A stretch of DNA of 64,000 nt from NCBI GenBank assembly GCA_007378985.1, contig VMHB01000001.1:192252-256251 (forward strand), given 5' to 3'. This document shows, one piece after another, positions 6,236-54,301 of this stretch. The stretch comes from Parcubacteria group bacterium Greene0714_7. Its GTDB lineage: Bacteria > Patescibacteriota > Minisyncoccia > Phycocordibacterales > Phycocordibacteraceae. Each line of letters starts with the position of its first letter. Position 1 is the stretch's first letter. The notes beneath the pieces were generated by a model that saw nothing but the letters and a program-made list of their open reading frames with translations, had not been told where the DNA came from and did no database searches. The translations under genes and the position numbers were made by a program.

Positions 6236-6321
6236 TTTCTAAATTTCTACTCCTCTCGAATTTCTAACTCTTAGAAAGAACTGTGTGAGAAAATTTTTCC
6301 GCAATACCTTTATAAACTCAT

Positions 6322-6357
6322 CCTCTAAACACTATCATATATGATAGTGTTTAGAGG
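6322..6357. promoter_or_regulatory. 36-bp perfect palindrome (operator-like) ending at the start codon of the TrpR-like gene
   Basis: CCTCTAAACACTATCATATATGATAGTGTTTAGAGG. A TATAAA box lies about 6 nt upstream. Confidence 0.6.
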
Positions 6358-6786
6358 ATGAAGGTTAAACCAAAAAAACTCACAAAAGATCAAATTATTG
6401 AAACTCTTGATGCTTTATATACAGCGGCAGGGTCACTACGAGGGCGTGCCACTATGAAATTATTTCTTCGCGATCTTCTGACCGAAGGAGAGAGGGTGAT
6501 GCTTGGTAGACGCATTCTGATTGCAAGACATCTTTTACGGGGTGAAAGCTATATCAGTATTCAACGTACTCTTGGCACAAGTCCTGTAACAATACGAAAT
6601 GTAGAGAAATGGTTAGACGATCAAATGCCGGGGTACGAGACAGCGATTAAGGGTATGCAAGCAACTTTTGCAAAGCGAAAACAAAAAAGCGCATCCATTG
6701 GCACATTTGCTTACTTAAAGAAGCGTTACCCGTTGCACTTTCTCCTCTTTCCGTGGCCAAAAGGGTATCGTACGGAAGATCAGTAA
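6358..6786 (+). CDS. TrpR-like DNA-binding protein (YerC/YecD family), paralog 1
   Basis: Conserved family segment LYTAAGSLRGRATMKLFLRDLLTEGERVMLGRR. It is paralogous to the ORF at 52390-52782. Confidence 0.8.
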   Translation: MKVKPKKLTKDQIIETLDALYTAAGSLRGRATMKLFLRDLLTEGERVMLGRRILIARHLLRGESYISIQRTLGTSPVTIRNVEKWLDDQMPGYETAIKGMQATFAKRKQKSASIGTFAYLKKRYPLHFLLFPWPKGYRTEDQ

Positions 6787-6793
6787 TATAAAC

Positions 6794-6813
6794 CACTATC
6801 ATATATGATAGTG
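6794..6813. promoter_or_regulatory. 20-bp perfect palindrome with the same core as the upstream operator, between the TrpR-like gene and rarA
   Basis: CACTATCATATATGATAGTG. Confidence 0.5.
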
Positions 6814-20621: not shown

Positions 20622-21767
20622 ATGTCACGGGTAAAAATTACGGAGTATAGAGCTAAGAAACTTATACTTGGGGACGCATATGCGGGTCGTTCCTTGTCGG
20701 GTATTTCTGATGTTGGGTTTACGAAACCCAACATGGTGGTGAAGGTTGATCAAGGGATTAAGAAGCGTTTTAAGCAGGGGCTTGTTGCGGTCAATGTTTC
20801 TTCAAAGGAGGCAGGGCAGAAAGTAAGGGAATGGGAAAAGCGAGGTTTTTCTCATTTTCTTGTTGAGCCGTATGTATCGCATGAGGAGTCTGAAGAGCAG
20901 TACCTTTTTTTAGAGCGGGTACGCACGGGGATACGAGTTCTACATGCTTCTTCGGGTGGTATTGATATCGAGGCACACCCAGAACTAGTGAAAACATATC
21001 TCATAAACCCGGCACTATCATATATGGTAGTGCCGGGCATCCCAGAAAAATTCTTGAAACATCTTGTGGAGGTGTTTGAAAAAAACTTTTTCTCTTTTCT
21101 TGAAATTAATCCACTTGTTGTTCGGGGAGATGAGGTATATATCCTCGATGCAGCGGTGCTCGTCGACAGCGCGGGAATATTTTTCGTCAAAAATGGATGG
21201 AACGAAGAAGACGTTGTTGAGGGAAAGGTACGACATATTGCTGAAGAAAAAGTACAGGCACTTCAAAAAACTACCCCTGCCTCCCTGAAACTCACCATTT
21301 TGCACCCTGATGGAGGTTTGTTTTTTCTGCTTTCAGGTGGTGGTGGAAGTATTGTTATTGCAGATGAGGCAGAACTTAATGGTGTGGGTCGCTCCATTGG
21401 TAATTATGGAGAATATAGCGGTGGTCCAACTCGAGAAGAAACACATCTCTACGCACGAGAGGTGATTCAGCTATTACTTAATTCACCTGCAAAGAAGAAG
21501 GCGCTCGTGATTGCTGGAGGTATTGCAAATTTTACTGATGTTAAGTCAACATTTAAGGGTATTGTTGATGCCTTGTCAGAGTGCGCGAGCACTCTTCGAG
21601 GAAAAGGTGTAAAAGTATTTGTGCGTCGTGGCGGACCGAATGAAATTGAAGGGCTTCTTTTTATGGAAGAGTATTTAAAAAAAGAAAAATTATTTGGTTC
21701 AGTGTATGGTTCTGGTGCAGTAATTACGAGTGCAGTTGATGATGCCATTGCATTTATAAAAAAATGA
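20622..21767 (+). CDS. aclB: ATP-citrate lyase beta subunit (ATP-grasp, SucC-like)
   Basis: Blocks match the N-terminal half of ATP-citrate lyase: VVKVDQGIKKRFKQGLVAVN, FLEINPLVV, ASLKLTILHPDGG, GNYGEYSGGP, ALVIAGGIANFTDVKSTFKGIV and VFVRRGGPN. Confidence 0.8.
   Translation: MSRVKITEYRAKKLILGDAYAGRSLSGISDVGFTKPNMVVKVDQGIKKRFKQGLVAVNVSSKEAGQKVREWEKRGFSHFLVEPYVSHEESEEQYLFLERVRTGIRVLHASSGGIDIEAHPELVKTYLINPALSYMVVPGIPEKFLKHLVEVFEKNFFSFLEINPLVVRGDEVYILDAAVLVDSAGIFFVKNGWNEEDVVEGKVRHIAEEKVQALQKTTPASLKLTILHPDGGLFFLLSGGGGSIVIADEAELNGVGRSIGNYGEYSGGPTREETHLYAREVIQLLLNSPAKKKALVIAGGIANFTDVKSTFKGIVDALSECASTLRGKGVKVFVRRGGPNEIEGLLFMEEYLKKEKLFGSVYGSGAVITSAVDDAIAFIKK
21011..21034. promoter_or_regulatory. 24-bp near-perfect palindrome inside aclB that matches the TrpR-like paralog-1 operator core (19/20)
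   Basis: GGCACTATCATATATGGTAGTGCC versus operator CACTATCATATATGATAGTG. Confidence 0.4.
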
Positions 21768-21813
21768 ACCCCGTTAGAAATACCACCTGCACAGATTTCT
21801 AAAATATTTATAT

Positions 21814-23652
21814 ATGAAAAAGCGCATTGATAAAATTTCTAACGGGGTGAACATACTTGAATTAACACGGAGTGGAAGAGCAAGAGTTCTCGTCATAGGG
21901 AATCATTCAGGCATTATTCAGTCAATGCTCGATTTTGATTTTCTTTCAGGCAAGGAAATTCCTTCTGTATTGGGGATAGTTGCAGGGAATCGTAAGGCAG
22001 AAAAATATTTTTTTGGGACTAAAGAAATTTTGTTGCCATGCTATAAGAATATTCAAATTGCTTCGGAGGCCTTAGGTTCAAAGGTCGACTGGATGCTTAA
22101 TCTTCAGTCGGGACGGCGTACATTTGAATCAACGGTTTCCTTTTTTGATTTTTTCCCAAAATCGCTTGGGGCACACATATTTGCAGAAAATGTTCCAGAA
22201 AGTCACGCAACTGAGCTCATTTCTCGTTTTGGTAAGAAGTATTTTATCGTAGGGCCTTCAGGAGTTGGATTGTTGATACCAGGCGCTTTGAAGCTTGGCG
22301 CCATTGGTGGTGTTGATGCGGTTCAAATTAAATCTGGAGCACTGACAAACGCTGGAAATATTGCGGTTGGTTCAACTTCTGGAGGAATGACTAATGAGCT
22401 GATTCATGCAGTTGCGCGTGCTGGGAAAAGACTCTCGTTTGCAATAGCTATTGGCGGAGACAGGTTTCCTGTAGTTTCTTTGACGCAGATATTTGCGCTT
22501 GCTGAAGCAGATTCTCAAACAGAAGGATTTGTATATTTTGGAGAGCTTGGCGGTGTAGATGAATATGAAATTATTGAGCTCATTAAGGCAAAAAAGTTCA
22601 CCAAACCTCTTGTTGCGTATATTGCGGGAATTATAGATGAAGCATTTGATGAACATGTACAATTTGGGCATGCAAAGGCATTGGTGCAGACAATGGATGA
22701 AAGTGCTCGTGCAAAGCGTGAGGCACTTCGCGAGGCTGGTGTTATTGCTCCTGATACATTTCCTCAGTTTCTTGATGCGCTTCAAAAACTTCCCGGAGGC
22801 GCGTATACTGCTGAGGAAATGGATATAGAGCCGCTTCAAGGACGACAGAAAAGTATTCTTTCGACGAGAAAGGTTTCAGACATAGATGAAGGTCGTATTT
22901 TTGTAAAAGGAAAAAAACTTTCGAAAGGCAAAGAAAATGCATTTGTGGACGCTACGTTAGTTGCACTTCTTGGAAAGCCTGTACAGTCTCCAATAACACG
23001 AGCCTTTACCGAAGCTGTGTTTGAAATGCTTATAGACCACGGAGGAAATGTTTCAGGGGCAGTAAATACCATGATTACCGCTCGTGCTGGTAAAGATCTT
23101 GTTTCATCCCTTGCCTCAGGCCTTCTCACTGTTGGTCCCCGTTTTGGTGGAGCAATAAACGAAGCAGCTCGTTTGTGGATTTCGGGTGTTGTATCGCAAA
23201 AAACAGGTTTGGAATTTGTAGCTGAAAAAGCAAAGGCAGGTGAGTTGATTTTAGGCATTGGGCACAAGAAATACCGCGTTGGGCTCCCAGATCCTCGAGT
23301 GAAAGCTCTTGCTGAATTTGCAACGCTTCTTAAAGTACATCCACATTATGATTTCGCACGGAGCGTAGAGAAAGCAACAACTTCAAAAAACGGGAAATTG
23401 ATTTTAAATATCGACGGCGCTATTGCAGCGTTACTCTTAGACATCTTGAGTGAATGCGAAGGGATGAGTCAGCGCGAACTTCAAGAGCTTGCTGATGCTG
23501 AATTCTTTAATGCATTTTTTGTTATTCCTCGCTCTGTAGGTTTCATTGCACATTTCATGGAACAAAAGAAAAATGATGAAGGTTTGTTTCGTCTTCCTGA
23601 TGAACTACTGTTTGTGAGAGCAGAGACTCCAAAGAAAACTAAGAAGAAATAA
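21814..23652 (+). CDS. aclA: ATP-citrate lyase alpha subunit (CoA-binding SucD-like domain plus citrate-synthase-like domain)
   Basis: MLDFDFLSGKEIPSV, ARAGKDLVSSLASGLLTVGPRFGG, GIGHKKYRVGLPDPR (a citrate synthase-type motif) and PRSVGFIAHFMEQ all match the ACLY C-terminal half. Confidence 0.8.
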   Translation: MKKRIDKISNGVNILELTRSGRARVLVIGNHSGIIQSMLDFDFLSGKEIPSVLGIVAGNRKAEKYFFGTKEILLPCYKNIQIASEALGSKVDWMLNLQSGRRTFESTVSFFDFFPKSLGAHIFAENVPESHATELISRFGKKYFIVGPSGVGLLIPGALKLGAIGGVDAVQIKSGALTNAGNIAVGSTSGGMTNELIHAVARAGKRLSFAIAIGGDRFPVVSLTQIFALAEADSQTEGFVYFGELGGVDEYEIIELIKAKKFTKPLVAYIAGIIDEAFDEHVQFGHAKALVQTMDESARAKREALREAGVIAPDTFPQFLDALQKLPGGAYTAEEMDIEPLQGRQKSILSTRKVSDIDEGRIFVKGKKLSKGKENAFVDATLVALLGKPVQSPITRAFTEAVFEMLIDHGGNVSGAVNTMITARAGKDLVSSLASGLLTVGPRFGGAINEAARLWISGVVSQKTGLEFVAEKAKAGELILGIGHKKYRVGLPDPRVKALAEFATLLKVHPHYDFARSVEKATTSKNGKLILNIDGAIAALLLDILSECEGMSQRELQELADAEFFNAFFVIPRSVGFIAHFMEQKKNDEGLFRLPDELLFVRAETPKKTKKK

Positions 23653-24323: not shown

Positions 24324-24365
24324 CAGTATAGTATAAGTTAACGACCGTTAAATTATACTATACTG
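24324..24365. promoter_or_regulatory. 42-bp AT-rich near-palindrome P1 (20-bp arms, AC centre)
   Basis: CAGTATAGTATAAGTTAACG-AC-CGTTAAATTATACTATACTG. Confidence 0.5.
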
Positions 24366-24409: not shown

Positions 24410-24721
24410 TTATTTGGCCTTTTTTAAAAATTTGACGCTCAAAGGTGAAATGTTTGGATAGAGGCGTGCTAATTCTGTCGGGTCAGATTTATACGGTGTG
24501 AATGCTTCAATAGTTGCATCTGATGCGGTGCCTGGTCCAAGCCATACAGTATCCCCACCTTCATCAGTATGTCTTTCAATGTGAAATACTCGGTAGACAA
24601 TGCCGGGGAAAAAATGAGGAGCAAGAGAAATAAAGTCTTGCGCTGAGAGGGCTCGTAGTTTCACCCGATCTCCTTTTTGAAGAAAGAGATGTTCAGGTTT
24701 TCGGTGGTCTTTTTCTGACAT
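24410..24721 (-). CDS. Hypothetical protein (103 aa) bracketed by palindromes P1 and P2
   Basis: The ORF is intact but has no recognisable domain. Confidence 0.45.
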   Translation of the reverse strand: MSEKDHRKPEHLFLQKGDRVKLRALSAQDFISLAPHFFPGIVYRVFHIERHTDEGGDTVWLGPGTASDATIEAFTPYKSDPTELARLYPNISPLSVKFLKKAK

Positions 24722-24797: not shown

Positions 24798-24837
24798 TGT
24801 ATAGTATAATTTAACGACCGTTAAATTATACTATACA
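24798..24837. promoter_or_regulatory. 40-bp near-palindrome P2, same family as P1, in the divergent spacer between the 103-aa gene and the NUDIX gene
   Basis: TGTATAGTATAATTTAACG-AC-CGTTAAATTATACTATACA. Confidence 0.5.
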
Positions 24838-40011: not shown

Positions 40012-40185
40012 GAATTGCTGATTGAAGTCGAGTGTTTCATACACTAACTAGCCAATTTTTTATTTAGGAGATATTAGAAAAAAGAAAAATGGAAACAGTG
40101 GGTTGATATAGTTCAACAAATAGGAAGTAGGGCAAAATAAATTAGGACCCTCTAATAATTAATGCCCCGTGTCTCCGAAAAACAC

Positions 40186-40227
40186 CTGTATAGTATAAAA
40201 TCACGGTCGTGATTTTATACTATACAG
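40186..40227. promoter_or_regulatory. 42-bp near-palindrome P3 (same family as P1/P2, with compensatory arm changes) upstream of ychF
   Basis: CTGTATAGTATAAAATCACG-GT-CGTGATTTTATACTATACAG. Confidence 0.5.
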
Positions 40228-40287
40228 GGTTTTAAATTTTTTTTTTAGGCTAGCCACTAAAGCCTAAACCCTATACACTGCTCCTTT

Positions 40288-48960: not shown

Positions 48961-49000
48961 CCATTTCTTATATATCGATTAATCGATATATAAGAAATGG
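48961..49000. promoter_or_regulatory. 40-bp perfect palindrome immediately upstream of a consensus promoter
   Basis: CCATTTCTTATATATCGATTAATCGATATATAAGAAATGG. Confidence 0.6.
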
Positions 49001-51470: not shown

Positions 51471-52307
51471 ATGTCGCAATACTATAAGCCACACCGTAAA
51501 GTTGATTGGAATTATGGAGGGCCTAGGTGGCGTCTGTCGCGTTCAAAAATAGATCTCTTCATTCAGTGTCCTCGTTGTTTTTATATTGATAATAAGCTTG
51601 GTACTGCACGACCTCCTGGATTTCCATTCAATTTGAACTCAGCCGTCGACAAACTTTTAAAAAAAGAGTTTGATATTCACCGAAATTCAAAAAGTACTCA
51701 TCCATTAATGAGTAAGTATGGTGTTGATGCTATCCCCTTTGAGCATAAAAAGATGGATACATGGAGAGAAAATTTTAAAGGGATTGATTGCTTCCATGCA
51801 CCTACTGGATTCACTGTTTCGGGCGCCATAGATGATGTATGGGTTAGTCCAAAAGGTGAGTTACACATTGTTGATTACAAGGCTACGAGTAAAGATGAGG
51901 AAGTAACCCTTGATGCCGAGTGGCAGGATGGATACAAGCGTCAAATGGAAGTGTACCAATGGCTATTTCGTCAAAACGAGTTCACTGTCTCTGACATGGG
52001 GTATTTTGTGTATGCGAACGGAAGAACAGATACCGAGGCATTCGATGGCAAGCTTGAGTTCGATGTAAAGGTAATCCCGTACGTCGGCAAAGCGGATTGG
52101 ATTGACGGGACTCTTTTGGAAATTAAAGCGTGCCTAGATGCCGATGTAATTCCAAAAACAGGCGAAGCGTGCGATTACTGTACGTACCGCAAAGCAGTTG
52201 GGGAAGTTCTTCAGCCATTTATAAAAAAAGATGTAGGCAGTTCAAAAATAAGTAAGGCAAAATCAAAAGATAGTGAAGATTCACATGAGCAATCCCTTTT
52301 TAGATAA
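51471..52307 (+). CDS. Cas4-like/RecB-family PD-(D/E)xK nuclease with N- and C-terminal Cys pairs (probable Fe-S cluster)
   Basis: Motifs IVDYKAT and QMEVYQWLF (QhxxY), plus the Cys pairs CPRC (N-terminal) and CDYC (C-terminal). Confidence 0.65.
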   Translation: MSQYYKPHRKVDWNYGGPRWRLSRSKIDLFIQCPRCFYIDNKLGTARPPGFPFNLNSAVDKLLKKEFDIHRNSKSTHPLMSKYGVDAIPFEHKKMDTWRENFKGIDCFHAPTGFTVSGAIDDVWVSPKGELHIVDYKATSKDEEVTLDAEWQDGYKRQMEVYQWLFRQNEFTVSDMGYFVYANGRTDTEAFDGKLEFDVKVIPYVGKADWIDGTLLEIKACLDADVIPKTGEACDYCTYRKAVGEVLQPFIKKDVGSSKISKAKSKDSEDSHEQSLFR

Positions 52308-52351: not shown

Positions 52352-52395
52352 GACTGAGAAACTTATTTCCATATATGGAAATAAGTTTCTCAGTC
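52352..52395. promoter_or_regulatory. 44-bp perfect palindrome over the 3' end of the second TrpR-like gene. It is followed on the plus strand by a T-run, so it probably also terminates the Cas4-like gene.
   Basis: GACTGAGAAACTTATTTCCATATATGGAAATAAGTTTCTCAGTC followed by TAATTTTTTCTTTTTT. Confidence 0.6.
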
Positions 52396-52782
52396 TAATT
52401 TTTTCTTTTTTGGTTCTGGAAATAGAAGAAAATGCAACGGGTATTTGCGTTTAAGTGCTCTGAAAGAAAATGGACCATAGTTCGCCTCAAAAAGGTTTTC
52501 CCTCTTTTTGAATTCTTTATCCATGCTTTTGATTGCTTCCTCGAATCCAGGAAATTGATCTTGAAGCCATCGTTCTACTCGGTATATGGTTGCCAATCCA
52601 ACGCGTAGTTTTGTGGCGATGTCATTAGCTCGTTCGCCTTGGATAAGGAGTCGAGCTATCCAAATTCGCCTTCCAAGCATGATTCTCTCGCTTTCAGTGA
52701 GAAGATCGCGCAGGAAGAGTTTCATTGTGCTTCGTCCGCGAACTGATCCCGCTGCAGTGTAGAGAATATCTAGTGTTTTCAT
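52390..52782 (-). CDS. TrpR-like DNA-binding protein (YerC/YecD family), paralog 2
   Basis: MKTLDILYTAAGSVRGRSTMKLFLRDLLTESERIMLGRR matches paralog 1. A strong SD (AAGGAGGAG) precedes the internal ATG chosen as start. Confidence 0.8.
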   Translation of the reverse strand: MKTLDILYTAAGSVRGRSTMKLFLRDLLTESERIMLGRRIWIARLLIQGERANDIATKLRVGLATIYRVERWLQDQFPGFEEAIKSMDKEFKKRENLFEANYGPFSFRALKRKYPLHFLLFPEPKKKKLD

Positions 52783-52875
52783 TTTCTCCTCCTTTCCAAG
52801 GTCGCTAGATTTTCTTTTCATACTGAACATATTTTCATATATGGAAATATCTGCACGAAAACATGGTGTATAACT

Positions 52876-52917
52876 TCACTCACATGTATTTCCATATATG
52901 GAAATACATGTGAGTGA
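52876..52917. promoter_or_regulatory. 42-bp perfect palindrome in the divergent spacer between TrpR-like paralog 2 and the MGMT-like gene. An imperfect copy lies at 52849-52868.
   Basis: TCACTCACATGTATTTCCATATATGGAAATACATGTGAGTGA. The core TTTCCATATATGGAAA is shared with the 52352 palindrome. Confidence 0.6.
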
Positions 52918-52969
52918 ACAGATTTGGGCGTGCAAGATGAGCTAGGCAAAAGGGTGGTATATTTGATAA

Positions 52970-53325: not shown

Positions 53326-54009
53326 TTGAATGCAAGGCATATGGAAATACGCATTGAGCAATCTTGGAAAGAAAAATTGAAAGAGGAATTTGAAAAGCCA
53401 TATTTCAAAACACTGATTTCATTTGTTAAAGATGCCTATACAAAAGGTTCGGTATACCCACATCCAAAAAATATCTTCCGTGCGTTTGATTTATGTCCAT
53501 TTGGTGCGGTTAAGGTAGTTATCTTGGGTCAGGATCCGTATCACGGAGAAGGCCAGGCAAATGGCCTTTCGTTTGCAGTAGAGGAAGGAGTACGACCACC
53601 GCCATCGCTTCAAAATATTTTCAAAGAAATTCAATCAGATATTGGTAAGCCTCTTGTTCATACGAACGGTGACTTATCAAGGTGGGCAACGCAGGGAGTA
53701 CTACTTTTAAACGCAACGCTCACTGTGCAAGCGAATACGGCAGGCTCGCATCAGGGTAAAGGTTGGGAAGAGTTTACTGATGCGGCAATTAAATTACTTT
53801 CAGAAGAACGTGAACACCTAGTGTTTATTCTTTGGGGTAATTATGCCAAAGCAAAAGGTGCGCATATTGATCGCACTAAACATCTTGTTATTGAATCGCC
53901 ACACCCATCACCTTTCTCGGCCTTTAGTGGATTTTTTGGAAGTAAACCTTTCAGTAAAACAAACACGTATCTTATGGTTAAGGGACACGCTCCTATTGAT
54001 TGGCTCTGA
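53326..54009 (+). CDS. ung: Uracil-DNA glycosylase (family 1)
   Basis: Catalytic motifs GQDPYH and HPSPLS-like (SPHPSPFSA). Confidence 0.9.
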   Translation: MNARHMEIRIEQSWKEKLKEEFEKPYFKTLISFVKDAYTKGSVYPHPKNIFRAFDLCPFGAVKVVILGQDPYHGEGQANGLSFAVEEGVRPPPSLQNIFKEIQSDIGKPLVHTNGDLSRWATQGVLLLNATLTVQANTAGSHQGKGWEEFTDAAIKLLSEEREHLVFILWGNYAKAKGAHIDRTKHLVIESPHPSPFSAFSGFFGSKPFSKTNTYLMVKGHAPIDWL

Positions 54010-54079: not shown

Positions 54080-54301
54080 ATGGGTGCACACTGTTCAGAA
54101 CGTCATCTGGTGGATAAATTGAGAGATTTAGGATTTGAAGGGCCTGTCCCCGGTGGCCATCATAAGAAAATGACGAGAGATGGAAAAACAGTTGCAATAC
54201 CGAACACACATGGGAGCGGTCAACTCGACATTTGCGCAAAACTTCTTTTTAAAATTTTACGAGAGGGAGGGGTTACAAAAGATGAGTGGCGTCAGAATTA
54301 A
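54080..54301 (+). CDS. hicA: HicA-like (YcfA) mRNA interferase toxin with no adjacent HicB
   Basis: HicA pattern GGHHKKMTRDGKTVAIPNTHGSGQLDICAKLLFKIL. Confidence 0.5.
   Translation: MGAHCSERHLVDKLRDLGFEGPVPGGHHKKMTRDGKTVAIPNTHGSGQLDICAKLLFKILREGGVTKDEWRQN

Follow-up and report, generated by a model that had tools for sequence, protein, structure and literature searches.

What does a small TrpR-like protein do in a bacterium with few recognisable regulators, and why is its gene framed by long and perfectly symmetric DNA sequences? The question is posed by a 64,000-nt stretch of contig VMHB01000001.1 (the window in what follows) from Parcubacteria group bacterium Greene0714_7, one of the uncultured groundwater Parcubacteria. 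Tiny genomes with few recognisable regulators are the rule in Patescibacteria (the candidate phyla radiation, CPR), and to our knowledge almost nothing is known about the control of their transcription. The window encodes two TrpR/YerC-like paralogs. Three related palindromes attend the second of these (paralog 2): O1 precedes its start codon, O2 lies farther out in the spacer shared with the divergently transcribed genes of an MGMT-like alkyltransferase and a uracil-DNA glycosylase (ung), and O3 covers its stop codon, between paralog 2 and a convergent nuclease gene (Table 1).

The operator-gene-operator arrangement is a conserved cassette of the Patescibacteria. We give a probability of about 0.6 to the reading that these cassettes encode DNA binders of the TrpR type that are autoregulated and specific to each paralog, with sites that also serve as hairpins.

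A conserved cassette

Comparison extends to 80 homologous loci from species-representative genomes, all of them Patescibacteria, with 76 analysable genes (ORF (open reading frame) calling in the metagenome loci is crude). A palindrome is present on each side of 56 of these 76 genes, and the 9-nt half-sites of the two flanking palindromes agree at 8 or more positions in 54 of the 56. The centre is almost always [C/G]ATATAT[G/C] and the cores shared between sites are 18-22 bp long; the arms are locus-specific. The distance from the centre of the upstream site to the ATG has its mode at 17 nt (18 nt in both window paralogs), and the downstream site lies 10-90 nt past the stop codon. Where a genome has two to four paralogs, each has a half-site different from those of the others. 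Cassette synteny is stable among orthologues. (At one locus, L008 on contig DATDST010000069.1, three cognate palindromes precede the gene and another three follow it (AGTTCCATATATGGAACT), set 60-110 bp apart between -252 and +566 of the gene match, which suggests that binding might be cooperative or of higher order there.)

The TrpR-like gene runs in the direction of its upstream neighbour at 21 of 66 loci (p=2e-7) and in that of its downstream neighbour at 17 of 69 (p=7e-11), whereas 64% of gene pairs in general are co-directional. Thus, it usually stands antisense between two genes that are themselves co-directional, as paralog 2 does between the nuclease and MGMT/ung genes. The neighbours are diverse housekeeping genes (Obg at 10 of 66 loci, SecA at 9 of 69, also GrpE and others), and trp genes adjoin none of the loci examined.

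L001 and L208, the nearest two relatives of paralog 2, have retained the adjacency to the MGMT and UDG genes. Each has a single site whose centre is 17 nt away from the ATG of the regulator and 66-67 nt away from that of the MGMT gene; in the window its role appears to be divided between O1 and O2. L001 also has a more distant TrpR-like gene (1391-1807, 138 aa) beyond MGMT/UDG, flanked by a palindrome of its own, AAACTATACGATATATCGTATAGTTT (region 1354-1863). The counterpart position in the window is occupied by a 73-aa ORF (54080-54301) that matches no Pfam or NCBIfam family, and the name hicA given to it in a first-pass annotation, made from the sequence of the window, is unverified.

The proteins

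The first-pass annotation had recognised the two proteins as TrpR-like paralogs, and rightly so: they are 60% identical and both exceed the Pfam Trp_repressor (PF01371) cut-off of 27 bits, with 49.1 bits for paralog 2 and 41.2 for paralog 1. Paralog 2 matches a recorded protein of Parcubacteria bacterium Greene0714_7 at 100% identity. Both paralogs fall below the NCBIfam cut-offs for the TrpR equivalog (TIGR01321; 27.8 and 19.2 bits against 67.25) and for YerC/YecD (TIGR02531; 26.4 and 27.9 bits against 42.2), and therefore constitute a separate subfamily. This subfamily comprises 608 clusters at 50% identity (E <= 1e-10), mostly full length.

In a profile search of Protein Data Bank sequences, 3FRW, 3KOR and 3G1C have E-values of ~1e-10 to 1e-9 and E. 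coli TrpR one of ~1e-3, in each case over residues 8-104 only. The AlphaFold2 model (pLDDT 86.6) consists of six helices like those of TrpR and, after these, a long additional one (residues 91-115), a short one and a tail. Foldseek likewise ranks 3KOR, 3FRW and 3G1C first (TM 0.78-0.85), with 1TRO at 0.64-0.67 (target-normalised). The model describes a monomer.

The C-terminal motif (K/R)KYPLHFLLFPxPK, with a Lys-rich tail after it, hardly varies within the family and is absent from TrpR and YerC. (It is encoded at 52393-52470, residues ~118-143 of paralog 2, and at 6700-6783, and belongs to the lower-confidence tail of the model.) It looks like a short peptide motif that might engage a partner or serve oligomerisation. 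Searches for other affiliations yield nothing: the TrpR-like proteins have no match in PADLOC, so that membership in a defence system is rejected, no relatives were found on viral contigs, and by Pfam the gene between the flanking palindromes has the Trp_repressor domain only and no HUH/Y1 transposase.

A protein with such an extension, placed between two cognate sites ~450-550 bp apart, might bridge them by dimer-dimer contacts through its C-terminus and so form a repression loop, as LacI does with its O1 and O2 and λ CI with OL and OR. The presence of sites on both sides of most of the genes fits this proposal, as do the extra helix 91-115 and the KYPLHFLLFPxPK motif and the loci, like L008, with two or three sites on a side. 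On the other hand, the structural model is of a single chain, and looping leaves the dispersed sites and the long arms (both discussed below) unexplained. We regard it as distinctly improbable.

Covariation of protein and half-site

Half-site and protein were compared at 67 homologous loci by mutual information with 2000 permutations, kinship between loci being ignored. The highest value, 0.95 bit, connects half-site position -4 (C or G) with residue 77; positions -8 and -6 follow, with residues 80 and 76, and none of the 2000 permutations equals these values. G at -4 (GATATATC) is accompanied by Asp77 in all but one case, and C at -4 in none. Residues 77, 80 and 76 correspond to the DNA-contacting A80, T83 and I79 of TrpR, and columns of the helix-turn-helix (HTH) covary more than other columns (Mann-Whitney p=0.008).

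The same relation is seen on a smaller scale among close relatives of the window proteins. An orthologue of paralog 1 with 88% identity (L203) keeps both recognition helix and site; orthologues of paralog 2 with 72-74% identity differ in the helix and differ in the site (TTTATCTTATAAGATAAA). The recognition helices of paralogs 1 and 2 are SPVTIRNV and GLATIYRV, respectively, and the paralogs look like diverged protein/site pairs. This is what the first-pass annotation had surmised from two site types of the form N6-CATATATG-N6 with different arms, recommending a search of related genomes for centred palindromes that covary with the recognition helix. The covariation of half-site and HTH residues and the distinct half-site of each paralog support the surmise.

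The sites in the window

O1, O2 and O3 have TTCCATATATGGAA in common, so that the shared core reported in the first-pass annotation holds: the 14-mer core has 3 matches at two or fewer mismatches where 0.37 are expected, and none of 100 shuffles reaches 3. All three sites also carry TATTT(C/T)CATATATGGAAATA, and CATATATG occurs 6 times in the window as against 0.75 expected. O2 and O3 each consist of two 22-nt arms without a spacer. The palindrome over the paralog 2 stop codon had been placed correctly. The second long palindrome is real, but had been taken to be 42 bp at 52876-52917 in place of 44 bp (O2), and the imperfect copy (O1) had been misplaced to 52849-52868. The start of paralog 2 also shifts, from 52782 to ATG 52821, which is likelier because the resulting N-terminus, MKRKSSDL..., fits the family consensus MKxKxxDL. 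(The public record uses ATG 52830 farther upstream, for a protein of 146 aa.) The centre-to-ATG distance is equal in the two window paralogs, which identifies O1 rather than the 44-bp O2 as the counterpart of the paralog 1 upstream site. O1 is the likely autoregulatory site of paralog 2.

On the + strand, O3 is followed by TAATTTTTTC. It fits the hairpin-plus-T-run pattern of a terminator on that strand only, and the transcript of the nuclease gene would meet it; the first-pass suggestion that this palindrome ends the nuclease transcript is consistent with the pattern. The T-run is the antisense of the C-terminal lysine codons of paralog 2. O3 alone of its three sites has a T-run after it, and inspection of the sequences at 52875-52918 and 6318-6361 finds no hairpin-plus-T-run terminator.

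The upstream and downstream sites of paralog 1 share the core ACTATCATATATGATAGT. The 64-kb window holds no further paralogs, and its only extra cognate-type sites are O2 and one of the paralog 1 type within a gene (21008-21037). The latter gene belongs to a pair (20622-23652) resembling the beta and alpha subunits of ATP-citrate lyase, with citrate-binding and CoA-ligase/citrate-synthase domains, in this reduced genome. Homologues with the same domains number in the thousands in the database searched; the named best matches are from Patescibacteria.

Table 1. Genes and palindromic sites of the two TrpR-like systems (coordinates of the window)
Feature	Position	Strand	Remarks
Paralog 1, TrpR/YerC-like, 142 aa	6358-6786	+	Pfam Trp_repressor
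Paralog 1 upstream site	6318-6361		Perfect 44-bp palindrome, core ACACTATCATATATGATAGTGT; right arm holds ATG 6358
Paralog 1 downstream site	6794-6813		Perfect 20-bp palindrome CACTATCATATATGATAGTG; begins 8 nt past stop; upstream of mgsA/rarA-like gene
Paralog-1-type site in ATP-citrate-lyase beta-like gene (20622-21767)	21008-21037		CCCGGCACTATCATATATGGTAGTGCCGGG, 30 bp, one mismatched pair
PD-(D/E)XK nuclease, weakly Cas4-like	51471-52307	+	Pfam PDDEXK_1 52.6 bits; PADLOC Cas4 models E 8e-8; convergent with paralog 2
O3	52352-52395		Perfect 44-bp palindrome, core TATTTCCATATATGGAAATA, outer arms GACTGAGAAACT/AGTTTCTCAGTC; overlaps last codon and stop of paralog 2, between convergent genes
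Paralog 2, TrpR/YerC-like HTH protein, 143 aa	52390-52821	-	Pfam Trp_repressor; stop TGA 52392-52390
O1	52830-52849		Imperfect 20-bp palindrome TATTTTCATATATGGAAATA, one mismatched pair; centre to ATG 52821, 18 nt
O2	52875-52918		Perfect 44-bp palindrome, core TATTTCCATATATGGAAATA, unique outer arms TTCACTCACATG/CATGTGAGTGAA; divergent spacer, centre 73 nt from MGMT-like ATG
MGMT-like alkyltransferase, 95 aa	52970-53257	+	C-terminal domain only, PCHR motif (VPCHRV in translation); Pfam DNA_binding_1 92.7 bits; divergent from paralog 2
Uracil-DNA glycosylase (ung)	53326-54009	+	Pfam UDG 60.3 bits; GQDPYH in translation; downstream of MGMT-like gene

Dispersed copies of the paralog 1 site

An exact-match scan of metagenome contigs for the 20-mer CACTATCATATATGATAGTG (a single site class, on contigs that cannot be linked to genomes) finds it in at least 120 stretches. 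What follows applies among the matches listed. The 57 distinct dispersed sites are distributed as 37 intergenic and 20 intragenic, though 84% of the DNA is coding (p=2e-16), and 16 of the 19 copies in tandem spacers are nearer to the stop codon of the upstream gene. In the 10 nt on either side of the core, A makes up 47% on the left and T 49% on the right, against a background of 27%; the arm beside the core is A-rich 5' and T-rich 3' in 31 sites and the reverse in 3. This A/T-tract signal is found only next to the core, and mainly in dispersed sites, whose outer arms often resemble the GC-rich stems of terminators. Sites occur at a density of about one per 10 kb or less, beside unrelated housekeeping genes.

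This pattern suggests that the paralog-1-type sequence may double as a bidirectional terminator hairpin, with or without bound protein. A DNA-repair regulon was also considered and is rejected, since the genes next to cassettes and dispersed sites are diverse housekeeping genes.

Long arms and hairpins

Across loci, the arms show a continuous range of lengths between 8 and 31 nt. A fixed 44-bp unit is thereby rejected, and the three 44-bp palindromes of the window exemplify no family rule. (All three, at 6318-6361, 52352-52395 and 52875-52918, have arms of exactly 22 nt, near-equal predicted stability and unrelated outer arms. Arm lengths vary within other genomes; the uniformity may be a coincidence or a limit specific to this genome.) The two sites of a gene have unlike outer arms that are symmetric nevertheless, which implies that these arms are not read as sequence.

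The symmetry is kept as the sequence changes. The counterpart of 6318-6361 in L203 has an identical 28-bp core and three substitutions in the outer right arm, immediately ahead of the ATG, each of which has its mirror image in the left arm. At the intragenic site the arms read ACTATC/GGTAGT in the window, ACTCCC/GGGAGT in L201 and ACACCC/GGGTGT in L202; the flanks are invariant and the amino acids change. (Origin of this 30-bp palindrome as an in-frame insertion or mobile element is rejected: the homologous proteins are of equal length and the palindrome lies in a variable loop. For a comparison of this site with the paralog 1 operator in relatives, the matches include no paralog 1 orthologue from the L201 genome, and the L203 and L205 contigs are not assignable to a single organism.) Predicted hairpins range from -30.4 to -31.5 kcal/mol with z-scores of -8.6 to -10.5 (O2, -30.6 kcal/mol, z ~-10; O3, -30.4 kcal/mol, z -9.7). 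The mirrored changes and the stable hairpins support a potential for hairpin or cruciform formation, and the first-pass remark that the symmetry of the outer arms may matter gains from the compensatory substitutions between orthologous loci. Conversion-type mutation would give the same pattern.

That last process is an explanation in its own right. In E. coli, quasipalindromes are known to be corrected by intrastrand template switching, and an operator palindrome might seed such events, which would perfect and extend long arms that have no function. This is compatible with a protein-binding core and competes only with selected hairpin formation. It would account for mirrored substitutions, for the continuous range of arm lengths and locus-specific outer arms, for arms that end at functional sequence (the start codon at 6318-6361, the last codon and stop at 52352-52395) and for shorter arms inside genes (mean 12 nt, versus 17.5 nt between genes, among the matches listed). 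A neutral process does not explain the 31-to-3 polarity of A-rich and T-rich arms beside the core, nor the retention of the intragenic palindrome at the cost of amino-acid changes. We consider functionless arms somewhat unlikely, though the most credible of the alternatives to parts of our reading.

Hairpins might, conversely, be all that there is. The palindromes would then be structural elements of RNA or DNA (terminators, mRNA stabilisers, cruciforms), the TrpR-like protein would not bind them, and the association would be one of location. Very stable predicted hairpins (-30 to -31.5 kcal/mol), compensatory changes that keep the pairing, and the terminator-like A/T tracts beside dispersed copies (among the matches listed) are all in line with this, as is the occurrence of unrelated perfect palindromes at other gene ends, at 2822-2847 and 48961-49000. 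However, a hairpin needs no set sequence, and the ATATAT centre is nearly invariant across ~70 divergent loci; a gene's two sites have an 18-22-bp core in common and differ in their outer arms; one 20-mer is found again, without mismatch, in at least 120 metagenome stretches; and the variable core positions covary with residues of the recognition helix. O2, moreover, is flanked by divergent genes and has no transcript to end. That the protein has no part in the matter is, in our judgement, very unlikely.

The two unrelated palindromes merit description. The first is a perfect 26-bp palindrome, AAAAACTCTCATGCATGAGAGTTTTT, in an A5/T5 frame at a gene end, and looks like a bidirectional terminator without a loop. 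The second, a perfect 40-bp palindrome (CCATTTCTTATATATCGATTAATCGATATATAAGAAATGG) that is not of the CATATATG type, begins 13 nt past the stop codon of a YceG-like gene. Perfect spacer-less palindromes may be a general hairpin style of this genome. A further family of near-perfect palindromes, also unrelated, has copies at 24324-24365, 24798-24837 and 40180-40233 and the form (C/T)(A/G)GTATAGTATAA..CG-2 nt-CG..TTATACTATAC, with TATAAT in each arm of both 24-kb copies. These two flank a 103-aa ORF (24410-24721, - strand) that has no family match and lies beside tRNA genes, the same flanking layout with another sequence; the third copy is upstream of a ychF-like GTPase gene.

How the paralog 2 system may work

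Fold, sequence features, conserved layout, covariation and compensatory change are matters of observation; from them we infer DNA binding, repression and termination by the paralog 2 system, along the following lines. A dimer would dock on the 20-22-bp palindrome (TATTTCCATATATGGAAATA) in the manner of TrpR, its recognition helices reading half-site positions -4 to -9. Bound at O1, 18 nt before the ATG, it would repress its own gene. O2, in the shared spacer, probably ties the divergent MGMT-like and ung genes to paralog 2. O3 would mark the 3' boundary of the cassette, and its hairpin, with a 20-bp stem and a T-run, could also end the convergent nuclease transcript. Paralogs 1 and 2 would form an orthogonal pair, diverged in recognition helix and half-site. 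The extension to 44 bp would not serve sequence-specific recognition; constraint or conversion would keep the arms complementary for hairpins.

Several observations weigh against this reading. A σ70 consensus scan of the spacer 52822-52969 finds no convincing promoter, and O2 lies ~65 bp upstream of where MGMT transcription would start, which is unlike the position of a repressor. T-runs are not enriched beyond cassette palindromes, and canonical terminators at every cassette 3' site are rejected on that ground; most downstream cassette sites are without a T-run, so that termination at O3 may be specific to this locus. The covariation has a phylogenetic component, in that the clade-marker residues 3, 16 and 126 score high too, and as few as one or two evolutionary events may underlie the Asp/G pairing. 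Finally, 25 of the 131 occurrences of the paralog 1 20-mer among the matches listed adjoin a TrpR-like gene and 68 have no such gene within 700 nt; 15 dispersed sites are in convergent and 3 in divergent spacers (p=0.008). This bias toward 3' ends and the paucity of sites in divergent promoter regions are unlike a classical repressor regulon, and 'repressor/operator' is probably not the whole story.

The first-pass proposal that paralog 2 controls the MGMT-like and ung genes survives in part. Adjacency and a site 66-73 nt upstream are kept in L001 and L208; the position of that site is not classically promoter-occluding, and the neighbours of the family at large have no repair theme.

The dispersed copies raise a different prospect, namely that the protein/palindrome pairs work mainly at gene ends and not at promoters, each paralog gene being framed by marks of its own. 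A dimer bound to a hairpin-forming site at a gene end or within a gene would stop or gate RNA polymerase arriving from either side, as a bidirectional terminator or insulator that might be controlled by a ligand, and the cassette, antisense between co-directional genes, would be a valve (here between the nuclease operon and MGMT/ung). The infrequent co-directionality of the TrpR-like gene with its neighbours and the unrelated housekeeping functions of these neighbours point in this direction. So do the dispersed copies, which among the matches listed are mostly intergenic, convergent and biased to 3' ends, with A-left/T-right core flanks and GC-rich, terminator-like outer arms; the compensatory change that keeps the intragenic site is consistent with a roadblock. 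Opposed to it are the low density of sites, which excludes a general terminator, and the fact that the 64-kb window has no dispersed 3'-end copy. The dispersed sites are, moreover, on metagenome contigs that cannot be linked to a genome with a cognate protein, and were placed relative to crudely called ORFs. We think it unlikely that punctuation of this kind is the primary function, and prefer autoregulated, paralog-specific binders with hairpin-forming sites.

Relation to known systems

Both TrpR and HisR (YerC) recognise palindromes of 20 bp and frequently control their own genes; the 20-bp palindromes of HisR have a lineage-specific consensus, and a candidate autoregulatory site is present in about half of the genomes (PMC9413887). 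The window proteins share with E. coli TrpR the Pfam family and the fold (TM 0.65, TrpR-normalised), with the HTH aligning residue for residue; palindromic sites of ~20 bp, probably read, as in TrpR, at about -4 to -9 from the dyad; probably the autoregulation that TrpR exerts on its own gene; and, in alignments, the Trp-pocket residues T44, R54 and R84, whose equivalents in paralog 2 are T42, R52 and R81. They differ in having ~40 extra C-terminal residues, a CATATATG site centre, sites at both ends of the gene, and two to four paralogs with distinct sites per genome. The closest solved structures, 3FRW, 3KOR and 3G1C, belong to the HisR (YerC/YecD) group. HisR, however, is a single-copy protein of <100 aa without the C-terminal extension and governs a coherent his regulon, whereas the neighbours here are unrelated housekeeping genes; neither a downstream site nor long palindromes are reported for HisR.

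Repetitive extragenic palindromes (REPs) and their associated transposases (RAYTs) provide a likeness in layout: a gene flanked by cognate palindromes, one palindrome class per paralog, and dispersed copies that are mostly extragenic, at 3' ends and capable of forming hairpins. The protein here is a 143-aa HTH protein without an HUH/Y1 transposase domain, the site density is far lower than that typical of REPs, the palindromes are perfect with locus-specific outer arms, and their positions are conserved between related genomes with no sign of mobility.

Bidirectional terminators, including those formed by pairs of uptake sequences in Neisseria and Haemophilus, likewise reuse a short sequence as a hairpin stem at gene ends, flanked by A- and T-tracts; O3 fits the pattern of a hairpin with a T-run. 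Here the stems are much longer than usual (20 pairs), the sequence covaries with a DNA-binding protein, and further copies of it are at the start codon of that protein and within a divergent spacer. Roadblock and looping operators (PurR in purB, lac O2, λ OL/OR) offer a parallel to the cognate site within a coding gene (21008-21037) and to those that follow the regulated gene, but the arrangement here is systematic throughout a family and the sites are extended into hairpins.

Regulators that bind 20-bp palindromes and control their own synthesis are thus of a known kind. What is new is the subfamily with a C-terminal extension, the sites at both gene ends, the orthogonal radiation of paralogs and sites within a genome, the extension of sites to perfect hairpins kept by compensatory change, and the gene-end distribution of the extra copies. 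A full-text search of the literature (with most subscription journals outside its scope) finds no description of this cassette in the CPR.

Implications

Each member of the family carries a readable target beside its own gene, so that the family amounts to a natural table of recognition helix versus half-site for HTH proteins of the TrpR type, of use for specificity codes and for orthogonal synthetic repressors. Protein and palindrome change together in relatives, providing a natural model for the evolution of regulator specificity, and the pairing gives a way to predict the regulons of unculturable organisms. In these cassettes the site of a transcription factor and the sequence of a hairpin or terminator would be one and the same, and compensatory evolution suggests upkeep of the hairpin potential as such. 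Should the sites at gene ends turn out to terminate transcription in a protein-dependent way, they would represent a new mode of bacterial transcription punctuation, with a logic like that of mTERF or TTF-I and a layout like that of REP/RAYT, in a reduced genome.

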